NCBI GenBank assembly: GCA_976226885.1
Contig: OZ320317.1
Location: 50,034,001 to 50,098,000 of the forward strand
DNA: 64,000 nucleotides
Reading direction: 5' to 3'
Source of the DNA: Iphione sp. A-MEVVRFRX5
Taxonomy: Eukaryota
Part shown: in pieces, positions 55,056 through 64,000 of the stretch
How positions within the stretch are numbered: the stretch's first letter is position 1
How the letters are laid out: each line of letters begins with the position of its first letter
Notes under the pieces: model-generated
The model's input: only the letters and a program-made list of their open reading frames with translations
Told to the model about the DNA's origin: nothing
The model's database searches: none
Position numbers and translations under genes: made by a program

Positions 55056-56366
55056 TTCAGCGCTGGGCGTTCCCCACTGAGGCTCCAGATTGTCTGTGTA
55101 CTGCAGCATACAGTCAAGGGAAGGACACTTTGTAATACAGGATGCGTAGAGGGGAACATAACATGAGCGCCCGCCACTGTCCTTTACTGGCTGAAACAGT
55201 TTGTAATTACAAAAAACTGAAGCGTAGCCTCTCGACGCTTTCATCTTTACTGGTTTAGAGAAGTGGCATAAACCCGCACCGGAGCAGGGAAAGATCCCCA
55301 CCAGGAGTCTCTGCCATTAAGTGCTCGGCCGTAGGTATCTCAGTATTATCCACAGAAGGCTAAGCGAAAACAGAAGAGTCGTTCCGGAAGTGCTTAGTGC
55401 ATTGGCGCCGGCTATGACGTTGCGCTTGCGCAAGAGAGTCATCTTGGTCGCTGAGACTGGCGGATTTTCCAGGGTATGCCGCATCAGGGTACCACCTGCC
55501 AAAAGAAAGAGAGAACTTTCACCAGGAACCGCGCCCATAACTTCAAATTCCTGTTACTAACCAGGAGAAGCAAATTAAGTGGCAATCCTAAAGTAATGAC
55601 ATGCTTCCTTATGCTTCCAATTTTCTTTCCGATCAGATGTCTTCAAGAGACAGTTCATAACACAAGCAATGTTAGTTCCATTTTTCGATCGAAAACGGAA
55701 CATCACAAATGGAGACCCATACATTGTATCTAACACACAAAAAAGCTAAAGACATATCTGTGTTTTTAAGTTTTAAAACCAACTTATAACTTCGTAAGCA
55801 CCATAACACAAACCATTTGACTGTCCATATCTCCCACACTAAGTGCCTGGTAAGACTACCCGTCGAAACCATGTTATAGTGGACAGAAATACTGCCAAAC
55901 TACTACTAAACCAAAATAGGTTAGGGAGACCTTAAGGTCACCTATGAAAACACTAAAGGCTATATGAAGAGGCAAGAGCTTAGCATTCGTCCAAGTGTAT
56001 CAAACACGGTGGCACAAATTTAGCCAACTACTCTGTCTTCTACTGATAATCACTGACTTCAGGTGGTCTCTTCTCTATGAAAAATATTTAACCACTTCCT
56101 GACCATCTATAGGCTTATCAGCCCAATGCCGCTGATGATCCTACAGATAGATATAAAGAGAAATACATGAAATTTGGGAATTAATTCTCCAATAAATGAA
56201 TTAATTAAGTATTAAAGGGTGTAAGCTATATAACTAGCTCTGAATTTGTTTTGTAATATGCAGAATTATGAAGATGGTCACATGACTTTGCCATAAATTA
56301 GGTGATTAACATTTTGGCTAGTAATCACCTATTCTGACTTTTAAGAATTCTCTATAGCAAACATAT

Positions 56367-56635
56367 TGTGGTGCTGTGGAGTGCGGCATCAGGAGGCAAC
56401 CCCCGGTGCTGAGTGCTGCATGCGGAGTGCGGCACCAGGACGCGCCGGGGAATGCGGAGTGCTGCACTCCCCACCCTCCCCCTGCCCCCTGGGGTGGGTA
56501 TATAAGGGGCTACTGAGGGATGAGGGGGCCAGTTGGAGCTGAGCCACTGTGTTAGTCACATCTCTTGTCTGTTGGAATAAACCCCATTGTCTTAAACCTT
56601 AGTCATGTCTTTATTACGTAACGGCAAACGCTACA
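56367..56635 (+). repeat. 5' LTR (269 bp, TG...CA)
   Basis: Starts TGTGG after ATAT (candidate 4-bp TSD at 56363-56366), ends CTACA one base before the PBS, and contains TATATAA (56499-56505) and AATAAA (56576-56581). The 5' boundary cannot be confirmed without the 3' LTR. Confidence 0.75.
56499..56505 (+). promoter_or_regulatory. LTR TATA box
   Basis: gggTATATAAgggg, 77 bp upstream of the LTR AATAAA; usual U3-R-U5 layout. Confidence 0.6.
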
Positions 56636-56636
56636 T

Positions 56637-56654
56637 TGGTGGCAGCGGTGGGAT
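56637..56654 (+). promoter_or_regulatory. Primer binding site complementary to tRNA-Leu
   Basis: TGGTGGCAGCGGTGGGAT is the reverse complement of ATCCCACCGCTGCCACCA, the 3' end of eukaryotic tRNA-Leu (IAG/UAG type) including CCA. Confidence 0.9.
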
Positions 56655-56803
56655 TTTGCCCACCGCGGGACATGGCCGAGGTCAGTCATTGGGGCGAGGA
56701 TGCCGACGGTGGCCGGTTGGGGCGCCGGAAGTATCAGGGGATTCGGACCAGTGGGATAGCGATGGGACATCGAGCTCGGATGACGAAGTCCAGCTGGGCC
56801 GCA

Positions 56804-56983
56804 GGCCGCACAGCCGCACGCCGCACAGCCGCACGCCGCAACACCACTGACCACACAACAAGAAGCCGCAATGCCGCAGGCCGCAACGCCTCAGGCCGCA
56901 CAACCACAGGCCGCGACGCCGCAGGCCACGACGCCGCAGGCCGCACAGTAGAGGGCCGCAGCGCCGCAGGTCGCACAGCAAGG
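56804..56983 (+). repeat. 12 x 15-bp GC-rich tandem repeat between the PBS and the gag core
   Basis: (g/c)gccgca-type units start every 15 bp from 56804 to 56969. Confidence 0.85.
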
Positions 56984-57156
56984 AGCCACCTTGTCACCGG
57001 GTGCGCAGCCGCAGAGTGCCCCTGAGGGTGCCGCCCAGTCACCCACCACGACGCCCCTCCGTCCAGGCGGGCCCGTAGCGGGGTCAGAGCCTGCCGGCAG
57101 CGCTGACAGTAGCTGACAGGTCTGCCACGACGCTCCCTGGCTCTACGCGGACAGAA

Positions 57157-58102
57157 ATGGAGGACGACCGTGGACAGCTGGTGTGGGGTTTGGTCTCGGG
57201 CCTTCAGGAGGCTTGGCAGGCGACCCCCTCAGTCATCACTCCGGCGCGGAGGTTTCATGTGAAACCAGAAACGTTCGATGGATCAGTTCCCCTAGCCGAG
57301 TACTTGCACCACTTTGGACTAGTAGCCCGGGCTAACTGCTGGGATCGGGCGGAGCAGGCTCTTCAATTGAGCGTCTGCCTGCGCGTCGGCGCATTCGGCC
57401 CTGCAGACGGCGGGGGTTGACGTGGCGGCCGAGGGTGCGTTCGACCAGATCGTCGAGGCATTGAAGAACCGTTTCCAGTCGGCCGACCGGGCCACCTTCT
57501 ATGAGCAGGAGCTCAAACAGAGACGACAGGGAAAGGACGAGGATGCTCAGAAGCTTGCAGAGGATATTGAGCGGTTGGTACGGCAAGCGTACCCAGAAGC
57601 GGAGGGGCCTTGGCTGGACCGCATGTGCCGGGACGCCTTTGTGTCGGCTCTGAGGGAGGAACGAAGCCGTCGCTGGGTGGTCCAGGCCAAGGCCCGCTCG
57701 TTCCAATCCGCTGTGTCAGAGGCGTTGTTGGCTGAGTCTTTCCATTGCGCTGAGAAGGAGCATTCGGGGACGGCGTCAGCCACACGGGTCCACGCCGTGC
57801 GTGCGGAAGAAGGGGAGTCCGTGGCCGCCAGTCGCTCCGCACCGGCGCCGGCCCCGCCCGCATGGGAGCGCGTGGAACAGTTGCTCCTCAAGTTAGTAGA
57901 GCGGCCCCCGGCCACCGCCGGTCGCCGGAATCACCGCCGAGCCCTGGAAGGAGCCTGCTTCTACTGTCACGATCTGGGACATTTCAAGCGGGAGTGCCCG
58001 GCCCAGCTGGCGGCGGAGGCTGGTGCTGCATCCCCTAGCGCCACTTCGGCCACCACCCCCATCGTAGAGTCGGGAAACGGGGGACTGCCCGCCCGAGCCT
58101 AG
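57157..58102 (+). pseudogene. gag: Gag (capsid-like region plus CCHC zinc knuckle), one frameshift near 57385
   Basis: KPETFDGSVPLAEYLHHFGLVARANCW...CLR joins, by a 1-nt shift, to SAHSALQ...ALKNRF...LVRQAYP...CFYCHDLGHFKREC (C-x2-C-x4-H-x4-C), ending at TAG 58100-58102. Confidence 0.85.
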
Positions 58103-58110
58103 AGGGGCAG
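58072..58110 (+). promoter_or_regulatory. Programmed -1 ribosomal frameshift signal (gag to pol)
   Basis: Slippery heptamer G GGA AAC at 58072-58078 in the gag frame, a 6-nt spacer, then stem CTGCCC (58085-58090) / GGGCAG (58105-58110). The -1 frame is open from the heptamer into pol. Confidence 0.75.
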
Positions 58111-61100
58111 GCGGTAGAGTCACCAAGAGCAGAGGCCCCAGCCCGCAGCGATTCGCCCCCGCCCGAACACCTGCGAGCACTAGCGGGAGCCACCACGGGC
58201 GGAGTGGTCCTTCAAGGACGCCGACGTCAGGGGTGCAGTGGGCTGCTACTGTCCGGAAGAATGGGAGGCTCCACCTTCGACTGGCTGGTGGACAAGGGGG
58301 CATCAGCCTCACTACTCTCAAGCCGAGTCTCCGACAATTTGCAGGGTGTGGCCTTGGGCCCGATGGATGCCCGGGTGTTCGGCGTGGATGGGGCCCCACT
58401 ATTCGTGAGAGGGACGGTCGCCAGCCAGGTACACTTCGGAGATACAAGGGTACCCGTCAGGGCCCGAGTGGTCGACATGGAGGTACCAGCGATCCTGGGA
58501 CTCGACTGGCTGGACGCCTGGGATGCGGCAGTGGATACCGTGCGGGCGCAGGTAACTCTGGGCGCCCCTGTGGGGGACGGCGCCATGCTGCTGGCGGCCA
58601 GAGGAGACCATCGCATTGCCGCGGGACAGTTAGGCTGGGTGACGGCCACCTGGGCGCCGACACTCGGGGAACCCGCGGGGGTGCTGACCGAGGGTAACCA
58701 GCGGTTCGAGGAACGCTCGGGACTCCGGGTAGCACAGGCCGTGGTGTGTCCCGCAGAGCGGAAGTTGCTGGTGCCAGTATGGAACCCGGGTTCACAGAAG
58801 GCGTACATTCACGGCGGGACCCACGTGGGGCGGGCCCATCCGGTGGAAGAGGTGGATCCCATTCAAGTCGGAGCCAGCTCAACGGTTGAGGGTGAGCAGT
58901 CAGAGGCAGTGGGACAACTTCTGGAGAGCCTTCCAGAGGACCTCTCAACAGAGGAACGGCGGATGGTTCACGCTTTACTGGAGGAGTACAAGGGGGTGTT
59001 CCAGACCCCCAGTGGGCCCCTCGGGTGCACTCCTGATGTGCAACACCAGATAGACACTCAGGGGCATCCTCCCATCCGTCAGCGGGTGCGGAGCCTCCCC
59101 CCACAGAAGAGGGCAGAGCTCGAACGGGAAGTGGATTCCATGGTAGAGCGCGGAGTCCTGGAATCCTCTACCAGCCTGTGGGCCTCACCCCTGGTCCTGG
59201 TGAGGAAGAAGGATGGTGGGACCCGGTTCTGCGTGGATTACAGGTGCTTAAACGCGGTAACTAAGAAAGACGCTTATCCTATCCCCAGGATCGACGACAC
59301 CTTAGACGCCCTTCAAGGAAGCCGGTTCTTCTCAGCTTTAGATCTGGCCAGTGGATATTGGCAGGTGCGCATGGATCCACATGATGCAGAGAAAACTGCG
59401 GTGTGCACGCCCAGAGGACTTTACCAATTCAAGGTTATGCCTTTTGGATTTTGCAATGCCCCCTCCACGTTCAAAAGACTGATGGAGTCGGTGTTGCGGG
59501 GGCTTATCGGCGTGGAGTGTCTTCTCTATCTCGACGATGTTATCGTGCTAGGAAACTCGGTGCAGCAGATGTGCCAGCGCCTGGGAATGGTGTTCCAGCA
59601 GCTCCGGCAAGCCGGTTTGCATGTGAAAGCTTCGAAGTGCCAGCTGTTCCGGCGGGAGGTGGCCTACCTTGGGCACCGGGTGTCCGCTGCGGGGGTCGGA
59701 GTGGATCCAGCTAAGATAGCAGCGGTAGCGGAATGGGCTGTGCCTCGTTGCCAGGAGGAGCTACGCGGGTTCCTGGGCCTCTGTTCTTATTACCGGAATT
59801 TTGTCGAAGGTTTCGCAAAGATAGCAGCACCACTACACGCATTGGCCGATCGGCACGCCGAGTTTGCGTGGTCAGAACAGTGCCAGTTGGCATTTGAGGA
59901 GCTGAAGGAGCGGCTGGTGACGGCACCCATCCTTGGGTTCCCGAAACCGGAAGGACGACTCCTGCTCGACACGGATGCTTCGGATACGGGTATCGGCGCG
60001 GTGCTTTCCCAGGAACAAGAGGGGCAGGAAAAGGTATTAGCGTATGCCAGCAGGACCCTCACGCGACCCGAAAAAAACTATTGTGTCACTTGTCGGGAAT
60101 TGCTAGCAGTGGTGTTTGCATTACAGAAGTTCCGCTGTTACGTGGGAGGACGCACCATGGAGATACGCACTGATCACGACTCTCTGCGCTGGCTGTGCAA
60201 TTTCCGTGAGCCTCAAGGGCAACTGGCGCGATGGCTAGAAGAAATATTCTGCCACGACCTGCTGATCGTTCACCGGCCTGGAAAGAAGCATGGCAATGCG
60301 GATGGGCTATCTCGCCAGCGCTGCAAGCAGTGCCACCGCAACGAGGAGAGGGAGGAGCCAGTGCAGGAGCTCGCGGCAGTGGTGACCTTGAACCCAACTG
60401 GAGACCAACCGCAGCTACGGGACGCCCAACGGGAGGAGGAACCAGTAGCCGCCATTATGGACGCCCTCGAGGAAGGTAGAGAACTCCCAGGACTCGAACC
60501 GGGGTTGTCATGGGAAGAGCGCCAACTGCGCGCGGAGGCAAGACGGTTAAGTCTCCGGCGGGGGGTGTTAATGCGGTGTTGGCAAGAAGAGCCCTCGCGA
60601 CTGGTGTACCAGGCATACGTGCCGAGGAGCCTTCGGAAGCAGGTTTGGCAAGAGGCCCATGAGGGAGTGTTGAGTGGCCATTTGGGAGCGGAGAAGACAG
60701 GAGCCGCTCTTAGGACCAAGTGGTTCTGGCCTGGACTTCAGCGGGACGTCCTGCGCTGGACACAAGCGTGTCAGGCTTGCCAGCGCCGGAAAGGACCGTA
60801 CCGCAACAAGAGGGCGCCGCTACAGTACCGGAAAGTCAGCGAGCCATGGGAGCTAGTAGCAGCCGATGTCCTAGGGCCACTCCCACGGACCGAGCGGGGA
60901 CACCGTTACATTCTAGTAGTGGCAGACCACTTTTCCAAATGGACTGAGGCTTTCCCACTAGCGGAAGTCACGGCTCGGGCAACCGCCGAGGTGATTGTCA
61001 AGGAGATAGTGTGCCGCTTTGGATCTCCTAGAGCCTTGCATTCTGACCAAGGGTGGAATTTCGAAGCCGAGCTCTTCACAGAGGTGTTACGACTACTGGG

Positions 61101-61344
61101 GATCGAGAAGTCCAGGACCACACCATACCACCCCCAAGCCGACAGGGTGGTAGAGCATTTCAACAGGACACTCGCCAGCATGCTAGCTGCCCTGGGGGAG
61201 GAGAGGCAGGCCGATTGGGACTTGGCCCTTCCCTTCGTCATGGCCGCATATAGGGCCACCCCCCACAGCACCACGGGCGTCTCCCCTAATTGGTTGATCT
61301 TGCATTGGGAGGTTGCCACCCCGGCAGAGCTCCGCTACGGGTAA
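58072..61344 (+). CDS. pol: Pol polyprotein: aspartic protease, reverse transcriptase, RNase H, integrase core; damaged
   Basis: Protease LVDKGA (D-T/S-G altered to D-K-G), RT MPFG...YLDDVIV, RH TDAS...ELLAVV...TDH...NADGLSR, IN H-x6-H...C-x2-C, DVLGPLP, SDQG, VVEHFNRTL. Premature TAA at 61342-61344. Confidence 0.95.
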   Translation, partial: GKRGTARPSLEGQAVESPRAEAPARSDSPPPEHLRALAGATTGGVVLQGRRRQGCSGLLLSGRMGGSTFDWLVDKGASASLLSSRVSDNLQGVALGPMDARVFGVDGAPLFVRGTVASQVHFGDTRVPVRARVVDMEVPAILGLDWLDAWDAAVDTVRAQVTLGAPVGDGAMLLAARGDHRIAAGQLGWVTATWAPTLGEPAGVLTEGNQRFEERSGLRVAQAVVCPAERKLLVPVWNPGSQKAYIHGGTHVGRAHPVEEVDPIQVGASSTVEGEQSEAVGQLLESLPEDLSTEERRMVHALLEEYKGVFQTPSGPLGCTPDVQHQIDTQGHPPIRQRVRSLPPQKRAELEREVDSMVERGVLESSTSLWASPLVLVRKKDGGTRFCVDYRCLNAVTKKDAYPIPRIDDTLDALQGSRFFSALDLASGYWQVRMDPHDAEKTAVCTPRGLYQFKVMPFGFCNAPSTFKRLMESVLRGLIGVECLLYLDDVIVLGNSVQQMCQRLGMVFQQLRQAGLHVKASKCQLFRREVAYLGHRVSAAGVGVDPAKIAAVAEWAVPRCQEELRGFLGLCSYYRNFVEGFAKIAAPLHALADRHAEFAWSEQCQLAFEELKERLVTAPILGFPKPEGRLLLDTDASDTGIGAVLSQEQEGQEKVLAYASRTLTRPEKNYCVTCRELLAVVFALQKFRCYVGGRTMEIRTDHDSLRWLCNFREPQGQLARWLEEIFCHDLLIVHRPGKKHGNADGLSRQRCKQCHRNEEREEPVQELAAVVTLNPTGDQPQLRDAQREEEPVAAIMDALEEGRELPGLEPGLSWEERQLRAEARRLSLRRGVLMRCWQEEPSRLVYQAYVPRSLRKQVWQEAHEGVLSGHLGAEKTGAALRTKWFWPGLQRDVLRWTQACQACQRRKGPYRNKRAPLQYRKVSEPWELVAADVLGPLPRTERGHRYILVVADHFSKWTEAFPLAEVTARATAEVIVKEIVCRFGSPRALHSDQGWNFEAELFTEVLRLLGIEKSRTTPYHPQADRVVEHFNRTLASMLAALGEERQADWDLALPFVMAAYRATPHSTTGVSPNWLILHWEVATPAELRYG

Positions 61345-62216
61345 CCGGAAAGGCCGGTGGTAGAAAGAGGAGAGTACGCGCAGCAGGTGGAGGAAGAAGT
61401 CCGAGAGGCCCATCAGCGGGTCGCTTGCAAGCTGAACAAGGCAGCTGAGTTGCGGCAGGACTGGTATAACCAGAAAGTGAGGCCCCAGGAGTACGTAGTG
61501 GGGCAGAAAGTGTGGCTTTTCACCCCACTAAGTTCCAGAGCTGGTGGGAAGGGCCGTGGCGGATAGAGGACAAGTTGTCTGCAGTTGTCTACCGGATAGG
61601 AAGAGGGGCGCGGCGGAGAGTCGTGCATGCGGATCGCCTCAAGCCGGCAGTGACCGAGGACGTCGCGGCGGTTGCTGCGGAGTATGCGGAGTATGAAAGG
61701 GCCGCTGCGGATCACGGGGAGGTTGCAACTGTCGCCGCCGTGGAACCTGGACTCCGCAACACGTGCAGCCACGCGGCTCACACGAACGCCGCACTCACGA
61801 TAGGGGGCGCCGCCGTCGACTCGGACGCTCTCCCCAGCGTCCCTGACAACCCGTGGAGTGCACATCACGAGACGTCTGCTGCAGTACACCGACCAAAACA
61901 CATTGTTAATTCCATCTCGCACGAATCTTGGGTAGTCAAAGCAACGGGACTAGACACCACGCCACACATCCATATTGGAGAAAGTGATACAGCAGAGGTA
62001 AGGCACTGTTGTACCCCTAGCCAGTCATGGCGCCCGGGCGATAATCGGGGGTCGCACGCCGCAGCAGAAAGTAAACATCAGCGGCAGAGTTCTAGTGATA
62101 ATTTGCCGCACGGCTCAGTAAACGATAAAAGGGTGCAGCGGCACAATAAGCTAAGTAAACGGCCGCAATTTACCGAGAGGCCGCAGCGGCGCCACTTCGA
62201 GGCCGCAGCGGTGTAG
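61345..62216 (+). pseudogene. Integrase C-terminal region (GPY/F module) plus a ~190-aa extension
   Basis: After the stop the frame reads ...YVVGQKVWLFTP, shifts near 61525 to TKFQSWWEGPWRI...VYRI...VVHADRLKP, and stays open to TAG 62214-62216. Confidence 0.75.
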
Positions 62217-62240
62217 TACACGCCGCTGCGGCCTCGAAGT
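62194..62240. repeat. Perfect 18-bp inverted repeat (hairpin) between pol and ORF3
   Basis: ACTTCGAGGCCGCAGCGG (62194-62211), an 11-nt spacer, then CCGCTGCGGCCTCGAAGT (62223-62240). Confidence 0.9.
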
Positions 62241-62284
62241 TCAATTGTTGACGCCGCGCCTGCAACGTGCAAGACCTTGACTTA

Positions 62285-62310
62285 TACTGTTGCTTGTTTG
62301 TTCCCTGCAG
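62285..62310 (+). promoter_or_regulatory. Putative splice acceptor upstream of ORF3
   Basis: tactgttgcttgtttgttccctgcag: a pyrimidine tract plus CAG in otherwise GC/purine-rich element DNA, 2 nt before ATG 62313. Confidence 0.55.
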
Positions 62311-62312
62311 TG

Positions 62313-64000
62313 ATGACAGACCAGACCCCCACTACCTCTGGGGAGGTACCCTATGCCACGGCTCCATTTTCCTGCCACCTCTGCGACACAGGATTTCAGC
62401 AACAGCAGAACTTACGCCGCCACATGGAACAAGTGCACAGCCCAAAGGGTTTCGGCTGGATTTGCCCCGTCCAGACCTGCAAGAACACCGCCTTTCGACG
62501 ATGAACGGACTGGAAGCGGCACCTTCTGGTGGTACACCGGTCCCTCCAGATGACGCAGACAGTGGATATCTGTTATGTCCGGTTTTCGGGGTTCAACCCC
62601 ACCCGCGGGGTCGCCATCGACTGCCCCGCGGACAAGCAGATGGAGCTGGCCCGGTGGCGCTGTCGCAAAGCTACCGCAAGGACCAAGGATTTCCGGGCAG
62701 AGGTCATAGAGTCCTCGGACGATGAAGAAGAGTCGGGAGAGGAAGCCCCCCTCGACCACCGCGCCCACCTGCCCGCCGGGCGCGTCGTCGACTTGGCACC
62801 GACCGCTCCGCCCCGGCGACCCCCAGCAGCTCCGCAGGCAGCAGGGGACCGCCCACTTCTGCTTCGGCCGGGTCTGCGGATTCCCAGTCCGAGACACCGG
62901 CGCAGGGGTCGACCTCCGAGGCGGGACCGTCGCCGGGCAGCCGGGCCGGAACCAGTGGAGGGTCCGCGTCACCGCCGGAGAGGATGCGACCGCGTACTTA
63001 CGCCAGGGCCCCAAAGGAGTGTCCGGCGAAGCCGACCACGTGCGCCCGGACCCTCCCCCTGGTCCCGACCCCGAAGGGGATCAACCTGCCGGGGAGCCAG
63101 GATTCCAGAGGACGGCGGCTGTTCACCGCCCCCCAGTCGGGATCCGAGGACGACAGGGAGGGTCAAGTAACCTACCCAGCCAGGCCCACTCCGACGCGCT
63201 CCTCCCCCGGACCGATGGCCCAACCCCCCTATGCCTTACATTCACCGGGCAGAGGGCGAGCGGCGGCGCGCCATCAAGGCCGGGCCGGGGTGGGCAAGGG
63301 TAAAGGACCCACCACGGCGAAATCTCGGGGAAAGGGGAAGGGGAAGGCCCCCCCACCCAAGTCGACGCGACCAGGACAGCCGCCGCTCAAGATGGGTCGT
63401 GGGTCGGCTACCGACATGGAGGAGGAGTTAGACCGCCGCCTTGGGCCAGGTTGGTCCAAGGAGGCCTCGCCTTCCCAGCCGGTGGTCATCTCCGATTCAC
63501 CGGAAAACTCCCCCTCCCGGACTTGGAGGAGGAGGCCGCTGCTACCTTGGCAGGCCTCTCCCAGCACAGCGTGTCAGGACGGGCCGACGCATCCACCCCG
63601 CCGCATCGGGAGTCCCCGTTGGACCGGCCGCCCACTGCGCCGTCAGGTCGGGGCGGGACTTCCTCTGCATTGGTTCCACCGGGGGGGCGAAGCTGCGAGC
63701 TCCCGCCAATCGTGGAGGATGCAGAGCCTCCGGAGGCCCCCGGCGATGTGGAAGTGGGAGCTGGCGGGCCCTCGGCGGCCCATCAGGAGGAGGCCGTGCC
63801 AATGTCCTCTCCACGTGGCCCCCCCGCGACGTATCTGCCAGCGGCCCCGATGGGTCCTCCCCTAAGGGCTTCAGACGAGGAGGGAGTGGGAGCCGGGGGT
63901 TCTTCGTTGGCACCGTCGGAGGAGACTGCCCCGGCGGCCCCTCCACGCGCACCCTCCACGGCGGGTTCACCGACCACCGCCAGGATGCCAACGAGTGAGG
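62313..64000 (+). pseudogene. Accessory ORF3 of the Gypsy element: tandem C2H2 zinc-finger protein with acidic, basic and disordered regions; 3'-partial, interrupted
   Basis: ZF1 CHLCDTGFQQQQNLRRHMEQVH (62373-62438) and ZF2 CPVQTCKNTAFRR*TDWKRHLLVVH (62463-62537, TGA at 62502-62504). The frame continues through IESSDDEEESGEE; later segments need about 3 inferred frameshifts; the last frame is open from 63517 to the window end. Confidence 0.7.

Follow-up and report, generated by a model that had tools for sequence, protein, structure and literature searches.

A Ty3/Gypsy retrotransposon family that encodes its own C2H2 zinc-finger protein in the env position

C2H2 zinc fingers are known as a host weapon against transposons. 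Among the systems described to date, the Ty3/Gypsy element Cer1 of C. elegans carries in its env slot the gene for CERV, a nuclear non-env protein that acts in Rev-like RNA export (PMC10309623). Foamy viruses have an accessory gene, tas, located between the env region and the 3′ LTR and served by an internal promoter; its product, Tas, binds DNA and acts on the internal promoter and on U3 (PMC3185757). The VANC proteins of Arabidopsis transposons are element-encoded anti-silencing factors whose tandem-repeat targets differ between related families (PMC5735166). No description of a C2H2 ORF in Gypsy elements was found in the literature, with Repbase, Dfam, GyDB, supplements and subscription papers, where such annotation is possible, lying outside the search. 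The main texts of mollusc, annelid, rotifer and env-bearing Gypsy surveys contain neither 'C2H2' nor 'zinc', and the accessible parts of PMC2774666, PMC12440569, PMC7998251, PMC7264820 and PMC2836005 hold no such description; 'zinc' is absent from the main text of PMC5408684 and PMC7264820, and 'C2H2' and 'finger' from that of PMC5408684.

Here, we analyse an element located at the end of a 64,000-nucleotide stretch of DNA from Iphione sp. A-MEVVRFRX5, referred to below as the window. The zinc-finger accessory gene of this element is real, selected and element-encoded. The original prediction, made from the letters of the window, was right in that the env slot of the element is occupied by a gene of its own for a C2H2 protein, which is conserved: the gene lies within the LTR pair, other copies carry it, and purifying selection on it is strong. 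Not foreseen were the fusion of its frame to Pol, an intron-like unit and a promoter-like leader in front of it, a C-terminal domain, and its spread to other genomes.

The element, its copies and the Pol–zinc-finger frame

At its 3′ end, the window breaks off within a Gypsy LTR retrotransposon of 8,859 bp, the remaining part of which is supplied by the neighbouring stretch. The target-site duplication ATAT (56363..56366) precedes a 5′ LTR of 269 bp with TG...CA ends (56367..56635, + strand), which is 97.8% identical (263 of 269 bases) to the 3′ LTR at L011:2957-3225, equivalent to window positions 64957-65225; as anticipated, the predicted PPT, the matching 3′ LTR and the second copy of ATAT behind it were all found beyond 64000. 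The U3 of the 5′ LTR contains repeated TGCGG and is accompanied by a TATA box (56499-56505) and an AATAAA signal near 56576. The primer-binding site (56637..56654, + strand) is presumably of the tRNA-Leu type. Gag (56605..58102, + strand) has a CCHC knuckle and is broken in the window copy; pol (58039..61643, + strand) overlaps gag in a different frame and is interrupted twice, at 61342 by a stop codon and near 61533 by a frameshift. The Pol domain order revealed by Pfam, protease-RT-RNase H-integrase followed by Integrase_p58_C, is that of Gypsy, and the hallmarks of Ty3/Gypsy (Metaviridae) elements, i.e. two TG...CA LTRs, a primer-binding site, a PPT and a target-site duplication, are present. 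Neither env-like ORF3 traits (a signal peptide and transmembrane anchor, judged by hydropathy, or an env Pfam match) nor a chromodomain after the integrase were detected, Integrase_p58_C being all that Pfam sees in the integrase end and linker. The element is thus a Ty3/Gypsy LTR retrotransposon that is neither env-bearing nor a chromovirus. The Gag ATG sits inside the LTR (U5), and its frame crosses the primer-binding site in all six lineages (window 56605-56660), which share the Gag N-terminus MS(L/Y/W/F)LR(N/S)G(K/R)RYIGGSGG. Upstream of the element, on the + strand, a host gene with Thr-rich, mucin-like long frames and repeated exon-like units occupies 14314-42908.

The window copy belongs to lineage A, represented by 40 copies: a same-genome DNA search scored 40 of 51 candidates, and 40/40 matched. 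LTR pairs were detected in 33 of the 40 ten-kb stretches that hold them. With the C-terminal domain as query, 150 of 2,066 and 150 of 1,511 candidates were scored, down to ~38% identity; the 34 copies that make up lineages B-F were chosen from these because their open frames are long, and counts are therefore unbiased for lineage A only. Copies are related to one another, and the true sample is six lineages. RT-RNase H identity between lineage A and lineages B, C and D is 76-82%, and eight copies form a single branch with a support of 100 in a tree built without named reference elements. LTR pairs are 95.8-100% identical, with 14 of 50 pairs identical throughout, so the family is young; overall, this is a large and recently active Gypsy family. 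Differences between paired LTRs fall on 48 of 1,293 CpG sites (3.7%, a rate inflated by defining CpG from either copy of a pair) as against 36 of 12,169 other sites (0.3%), an excess which means that the host likely methylates the family. Two elements, L041 and L033, are internally deleted (5,090 and 5,781 bp) and have lost gag and most of pol; L041 retains the integrase end, the linker and an open zinc-finger gene. L054 and L055 differ by a dS of 0.09 in RT-integrase and of ~1.8 in the zinc-finger gene, from which it follows that the 3′ module has been exchanged between sub-lineages. In lineage C (L063-L065), the linker starts with a duplicate of ~200 nt of the gag 5′ region, placed directly after the integrase (83-91% identity).

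The zinc-finger gene (62313..64000, + strand) begins with a Met codon at 62313 and continues past 64000, its stop codon lying at window-equivalent 64834-64836. The window copy is degenerate, with one premature stop and two frameshifts, near 62746 and near 63520, and its C-terminal folded domain lies beyond the window. A frame of at least 560 codons with a single stop had been proposed but is not present: the frame of the ATG has stops at 62502, 63168 and 63429. Nor is the gene a separate third frame, as had been assumed, since intact copies have it in pol's own open frame. In lineage A, eight of 40 copies have a single frame of ~2,400 codons that starts with the protease and takes in the whole zinc-finger gene, and the same continuous frame, of up to 2,740 codons, is found in lineages B-F. 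The linker between integrase and zinc-finger gene (61644..62312, + strand) ranges from 729 to 1,875 nt in length, and from integrase to finger 1 it gives an uninterrupted in-frame path in 58/66 copies, compared with 54/66 for an integrase stretch of equal length and 0/66 for each of the other two linker frames; for lineage A alone, the corresponding numbers are 28/35 for the linker and 27/35 for the integrase stretch. The zinc-finger gene is not a free ORF3; Pol continues in frame into it in all six lineages.

Selection was estimated as pairwise Nei-Gojobori dN/dS between natural copies, using nine lineage-A pairs and six pairs from lineages B, D, E and F. In lineage A, ratios are 0.03-0.10 for RT-RNase H, 0.04-0.08 for the C-terminal domain (nine pairs), 0-0.05 for the finger pair (the five of nine pairs that are unsaturated), 0.13-0.23 for the whole zinc-finger gene and 0.58-0.76 for the linker. 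The six pairs from the other lineages give 0.02-0.06 for the finger domain (one pair saturated), 0-0.09 for the C-terminal domain, 0.16-0.36 for the disordered part and 0.33-0.77 for the linker. Judged by these ratios, which are mostly <0.1, the finger and C-terminal domains are constrained as strongly as RT, and the linker appears near-neutral, held open with residue identity of little weight. A linker that is open yet near-neutral would also be expected if, in an alternative that concerns the fusion alone, its openness served not a fused protein but the passage of ribosomes to the 3′ end, shielding genomic RNA from nonsense-mediated decay, a decay process that readthrough inhibits in a distance-dependent manner (PMC5360307). 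We regard this reading as quite possible, though somewhat short of probable: linker dN/dS is <1 in 15/15 pairs (0.33-0.77), which constraint at the DNA level may explain, and many related Gypsy loci end Pol ahead of a separate zinc-finger ORF.

In intact natural copies, the gene comprises ~850-1,200 codons, and its product begins with a folded domain that contains two C2H2 fingers, continues with a long disordered stretch and ends in a C-terminal domain. Both fingers are where they had been predicted, finger 1 (C-x2-C-x3-F-x5-L-x2-H-x4-H) at 62373..62438 and finger 2 (C-x4-C-x4-F-x5-W-x2-H-x4-H) at 62463..62537, both on the + strand, the latter interrupted in the window copy by the stop at 62502-62504; the Pfam zf-C2H2 match of this copy has an E-value of 8.6e-5, slightly under the curated cut-off. 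All eight zinc ligands are invariant among 13 aligned copies, and the classical C2H2 pattern (C-x2,4-C...H-x3,5-H) goes together with a modelled strand-strand-helix fold. The two fingers are modelled with confidence (pLDDT 89.7) as one unit together with a pair of additional strands and a long basic helix, which follow finger 2. The eight-residue linker between the fingers, with G-W-x before the Cys, differs from the canonical TGEKP. The helix of finger 1 carries Gln-1, Asn+3 and Arg+6, of which Asn+3 and Arg+6 are kept in all lineages except B, and that of finger 2 carries Arg-1, Asp+3 and Arg+6 in every lineage, as judged from intact copies. A fold search with the finger domain returned nothing at Z>=5; by word index, the matches were limited to two arrays of generic fingers, and the ESM Atlas gave just unnamed or generic C2H2 clusters (<=0.90).

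The acidic patch and disordered tail that had been noted behind the fingers are present, and the claim that the protein has no transmembrane segment holds for an intact natural copy, with a top 19-residue Kyte-Doolittle mean of 0.64. The disordered middle (15% Pro, 31 S/T-P sites) retains short motifs in a fixed order, [RKH]TYx[RK], RRLF and LDxRLGxxW. In the window copy, the conserved [RKH]-T-Y-x-[RK] motif (62993..63007, + strand) resembles Pds5-binding motifs, and the conserved RRLF motif (63113..63124, + strand) is, we assume, cyclin-docking-like. A PVVISDS motif (63479..63499, + strand), matched by VVxSDS-like stretches in lineages A, B and D, is taken to be a putative SUMO-interaction-like sequence, and an EAAxxL-like motif is confined to lineage A.

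Confident folding is predicted for the final 120 residues (block pLDDT 76-93), which belong to no known family according to Pfam, PDB, profile and fold searches: there is no Pfam family, no PDB sequence match, nothing at E<=0.001 in Foldseek against PDB, and nothing significant in comparison with the C-termini of the relatives P0082 and P0124. Three candidate matches were set aside. A profile search of 1.84 billion proteins returned a single Ig-repeat protein, judged spurious; the best VIA match was a phage tail-completion fold (Z 8.0, rmsd 3.5, 101 aligned) of a range that the tool rates as common; and two matches in a viral library (E 9.6e-4) had TM <0.4.

A predicted expression unit within the linker

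Directly before the zinc-finger ATG, a branch-point, a pyrimidine tract and a YAG form a candidate splice acceptor that ranks first among ~630 AG in 45/57 copies with the branch-point filter off, and the strongest donor of the element is found ~150-600 nt 5′ of it. In the window copy, the donor ranks 1 of 344 GT and the acceptor 1 of 647 AG, and splice-signal scoring thus predicts an intron of 313 nt (61998..62310, + strand). A survey of 71 of the 74 copies, the other three being without detectable fingers, placed the linker donor first of ~300-400 GT in 61/71 and the linker acceptor first of ~600-700 AG in 51/71 copies; these are purpose-built scores, with generic donor weights and an acceptor score fixed after the site had been seen. 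The length of the predicted intron is 3n+1 in 67/71 copies, so splicing would change the reading frame and thereby terminate Pol; after predicted splicing, the Pol stop of lineage A lands on or beside the zinc-finger ATG. No donor by which Gag could be joined to the zinc-finger exon was found to be conserved between lineages in U5 or early gag, the search covering the initial 900 nt of gag. GCGATAA is conserved inside the predicted intron, at +40. Three copies (L013, L024 and L028) have a second strong acceptor ~18 nt before the linker donor, in a micro-exon-like arrangement.

The sequence 5′ of the donor has the appearance of a leader. A predicted non-coding first exon (61798..61997, + strand) is depleted of ATG on the + strand, and in all six lineages the 200 nt 5′ of the donor contain 0-2.5 ATG per kb, compared with 8-14 for integrase and 8-25 for the intron; between acceptor and Met, lineages B-F have <1 ATG per kb. 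A candidate internal-promoter region (61644..61811, + strand) contains GCGGA repeats. TATA-like boxes precede the donor in lineages C, D and F, and none is present in lineage A, the window's own lineage, which speaks against an internal promoter there. An upstream motif of the AGAGGGCGCC type occurs in lineages A, D and F and, inverted, in B; in the window, it is the A(G/T)AGGG(C/G)G(C/T)C-like motif at 61802-61811 (+ strand), within the predicted promoter region. We take this motif and its homologues to be putative CTCF-like sites. In lineages D and F, the motif lies ~30-40 nt 5′ of the TATA box. The pattern as a whole would fit a two-exon 5′ leader transcribed from an internal promoter, and predicts a dual expression design in which the zinc-finger gene yields two products, a Pol–zinc-finger fusion and a free zinc-finger protein from the internal promoter.

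An intron with strong predicted sites that genomic RNA must retain also raises the possibility of a Rev-like export factor, which would bind unspliced genomic RNA and export it despite these sites, much as CERV, encoded in the env slot and made from spliced RNA, performs RNA export for Cer1 (PMC10309623). The Arg-rich helix and stretches of the zinc-finger protein are compatible with such a role. However, the helix of finger 2 remains of the DNA type (Arg/Asp/Arg) throughout the six lineages, a CERV-like fold is absent among the matches of the fold searches (library searches only), and the ATG-poor leader just 5′ of the donor suggests a separate promoter rather than an LTR-derived exon; on this evidence, we consider RNA export unlikely.

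LTR repeats and the function of the zinc-finger protein

By the recognition code, which was applied only after U3 had been inspected, we predict that the finger pair reads GCG-GAN. In lineage A, U3 contains GCGGA two or three times where 0.1-0.3 are expected (7/7 copies), and the linker is enriched in GCGGA at p<=0.01 in 5/7 copies. As a predicted site across lineages, GCGGA was rejected, failing in the U3 of C, D and E, with A alone fitting. The core common to the lineages is TGCGG, which is repeated in the U3 of A, C and D (p 0.002-0.05), occurs twice in that of E (p 0.12-0.19) and several times, by eye, in that of F; continued past GCGG, the sequence is GCGGC-A in C, E and F and GCGGC-T in D. 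TGCGG is missing from the U3 of lineage B, whose finger 1 lacks Asn+3 and Arg+6, so the five lineages with TGCGG in U3 are the same five whose finger 1 retains these residues. The match between fingers and U3 is partial and post hoc; the correlation of code and repeats draws on six related lineages with one negative, and TGCGG could be the site of a host factor. Moreover, finger 2 is modelled as part of a larger fold and the inter-finger linker is not of the TGEKP type, so that the protein may bind DNA in a non-canonical way.

The reading that we prefer, and that we hold to be about evenly balanced between right and wrong, is that the protein is a Tas-like activator or anti-silencer of the element's own promoters. 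Its observed basis is the position within the LTR pair, the open frame, purifying selection and splice-like signals. An internal promoter of low strength, placed where pol ends, would start an RNA with a short non-coding exon, and removal of the 3n+1 intron would bring the zinc-finger ATG forward and close the Pol frame. Finger 2 (Arg-1/Asp+3/Arg+6) would then read GCG and finger 1 (Arg+6) the next G, together the TGCGG core, and by binding the TGCGG repeats in its own LTR and linker the protein would switch on or de-silence the element, with the disordered region drawing in host factors via its short motifs. Unspliced genomic RNA, on the other hand, would give rise to a Gag-Pol–zinc-finger product that carries the protein into the particle and to the new copy. 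Three functions had been offered in the original prediction, LTR transactivation, anti-silencing and integration targeting; of these, transactivation or anti-silencing would fit best, and sequence-directed integration targeting has been weakened by insertion flanks that show no excess of GCGG.

The latter point bears on a tether, in which the zinc-finger module remains attached to the integrase and guides it to chromatin, in the manner of the chromodomains of chromoviruses, with the free protein of secondary importance. The fusion frame is conserved as strictly as the integrase frame, outside relatives have chromo (P0027, P0040) or PHD (P0077) domains in Pol, and the Pds5-like motif could provide a link to cohesin. 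Yet all that the flanks display is an NTAT-like duplication of 4 bp and an A/T at position 7; GCGG/CCGC is present six times in 3,660 nt of flanks (60-nt flanks), which is the host background rate, and a dedicated leader and intron would be superfluous for tethering; a tether therefore seems distinctly unlikely. The short motifs might point instead to a modulator of the host cell that acts on cohesin or the cell cycle via the TY and RRLF motifs and opens a window for transposition, with the fingers just anchoring it to chromatin. In an otherwise divergent region, [RKH]TYx[RK] is found in 14/15 and RxLF in 13/15 copies (one copy is truncated), covering all six lineages. Pds5 binders share the consensus [R/K]-[S/T]-Y-[K/S/T/G/A]-[Q/R/K/A] (PMC12264150), which lineages A, E and F fit; B, C and D, however, have Glu at position 4 and fall outside it, short motifs arise readily by chance, and binding is putative. 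We regard such a modulator as improbable.

A self-repressor that binds the same repeats and dampens the LTR to limit copy number would share the binding evidence of the preferred reading, and the putative SUMO-interaction-like and EAAxxL-like motifs would suit it. The family is, however, abundant and young, as the identical LTR pairs (14/50) attest, and EAAxxL is restricted to lineage A; self-repression is accordingly very improbable in our view. If the protein does activate or de-silence the LTR, as the preferred reading has it, animal Metaviridae would have a DNA-binding regulator encoded by the element itself, and this would offer a testable case for the escape of LTR elements from methylation, with the six lineages, which differ in finger helices and U3 repeats, serving as a natural specificity panel.

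Relatives in other genomes and known systems

Integrase relatives were taken as the best 120 of 335 proteins of 1,345-4,283 residues, a length filter that favours long tails, and 18 of these 120 have fingers in frame after the integrase. P0082 matches the finger pair (E 2.7e-11), as does P0124, a cluster-mate of P0033, with a probability score of 92.6; 17 other finger-bearing relatives have a different finger pair and fall on one 20-row branch (support 97) apart from the A-F family. In a metagenome set of 80 Gypsy loci, 48 have a full integrase end and >=350 nt behind it, and 12 of these 48 have a Met-initiated finger ORF within 1.5 kb of the integrase, compared with none on the opposite strand and 0.2 in shuffled sequences. 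Most of these ORFs are separate from Pol, some with an acceptor directly before the ATG (L102, L132). Loose-pattern matches in L082, L099 and L112 were lost under a stricter pattern and judged to be chance; the stricter pattern also dropped L100 and L134. Two metagenome Gypsy loci, L104:5809-7785 and L107:7501-9000, have an ORF3 that combines a zinc finger with a TatD DNase (Pfam E 1e-33 and 1.9e-38). A second, small type of ORF3 (L102, L105, L089, L121, L132) has one N-terminal finger and an RRQLF-like motif, a Cys-rich C-terminus in the three long ones, and in most a splice acceptor just 5′ of the ATG. In the related Gypsy P0060, a signal-peptide env-like protein follows the integrase in frame in the same slot (by eye). 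Relatives thus carry env, zinc-finger or zinc-finger-TatD genes at this one place, which makes it an exchangeable position for accessory genes.

It is conceivable, though our judgement leans against it, that these elements represent a widespread and so far undescribed class of 'complex' Gypsy in invertebrates, with a foamy-like two-promoter switch run by their own C2H2 factor, which is packaged as a Pol fusion and whose finger helices co-evolve with the U3 repeats. Here, the transposon itself encodes C2H2 fingers, under selection as strong as that on reverse transcriptase, and a predicted dedicated expression unit is built inside a coding linker. If the two-promoter reading were true, transposons would turn the host's silencing protein family against the host.

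Among known systems, Tas appears closest in logic, and to our knowledge it has no C2H2 fingers. The likeness lies in DNA-binding action on an internal promoter and U3, which is predicted for the zinc-finger protein; the difference is that Tas belongs to Retroviridae and is not fused to Pol (PMC3185757). With VANC, the element would share a transposon-encoded factor, tandem repeats that differ between lineages and a methylating host, but VANC comes from plant DNA transposons, and demethylation is a feature of VANC to which the zinc-finger protein is likened by analogy (PMC5735166). The non-env ORF3s of bdelloid LTR elements (PMC5408684) and the additional ORFs of plant elements, such as Grande gene23, which is nuclear and has its own promoter (PMC7264820), are likewise family-specific extra genes between pol and the 3′ LTR; as far as these papers describe them, they are GDSL, DEDDy, TM or antisense ORFs. 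Chromoviruses and Ginger1 also have an extra domain in frame at the integrase C-terminus, but these are modest chromo, PHD, OTU or Ulp1 domains (PMC12440569, PMC2836005), whereas the zinc-finger protein has 850-1,200 residues, its own ATG and splice signals. In architecture, CERV appears to be the closest system. It differs in being spliced with gag exons, in its possible C4 finger and in exporting RNA (PMC10309623), the zinc-finger gene having two C2H2 fingers, a predicted internal promoter and a non-coding first exon, and no sequence or fold match to CERV appeared among the matches of the library searches. It resembles the zinc-finger gene in occupying the env slot, in lying partly in the polyprotein frame, in its expression from spliced RNA, which is predicted here, and in a phosphorylated site that has a parallel in the many S/T-P sites of the zinc-finger protein (PMC10309623).
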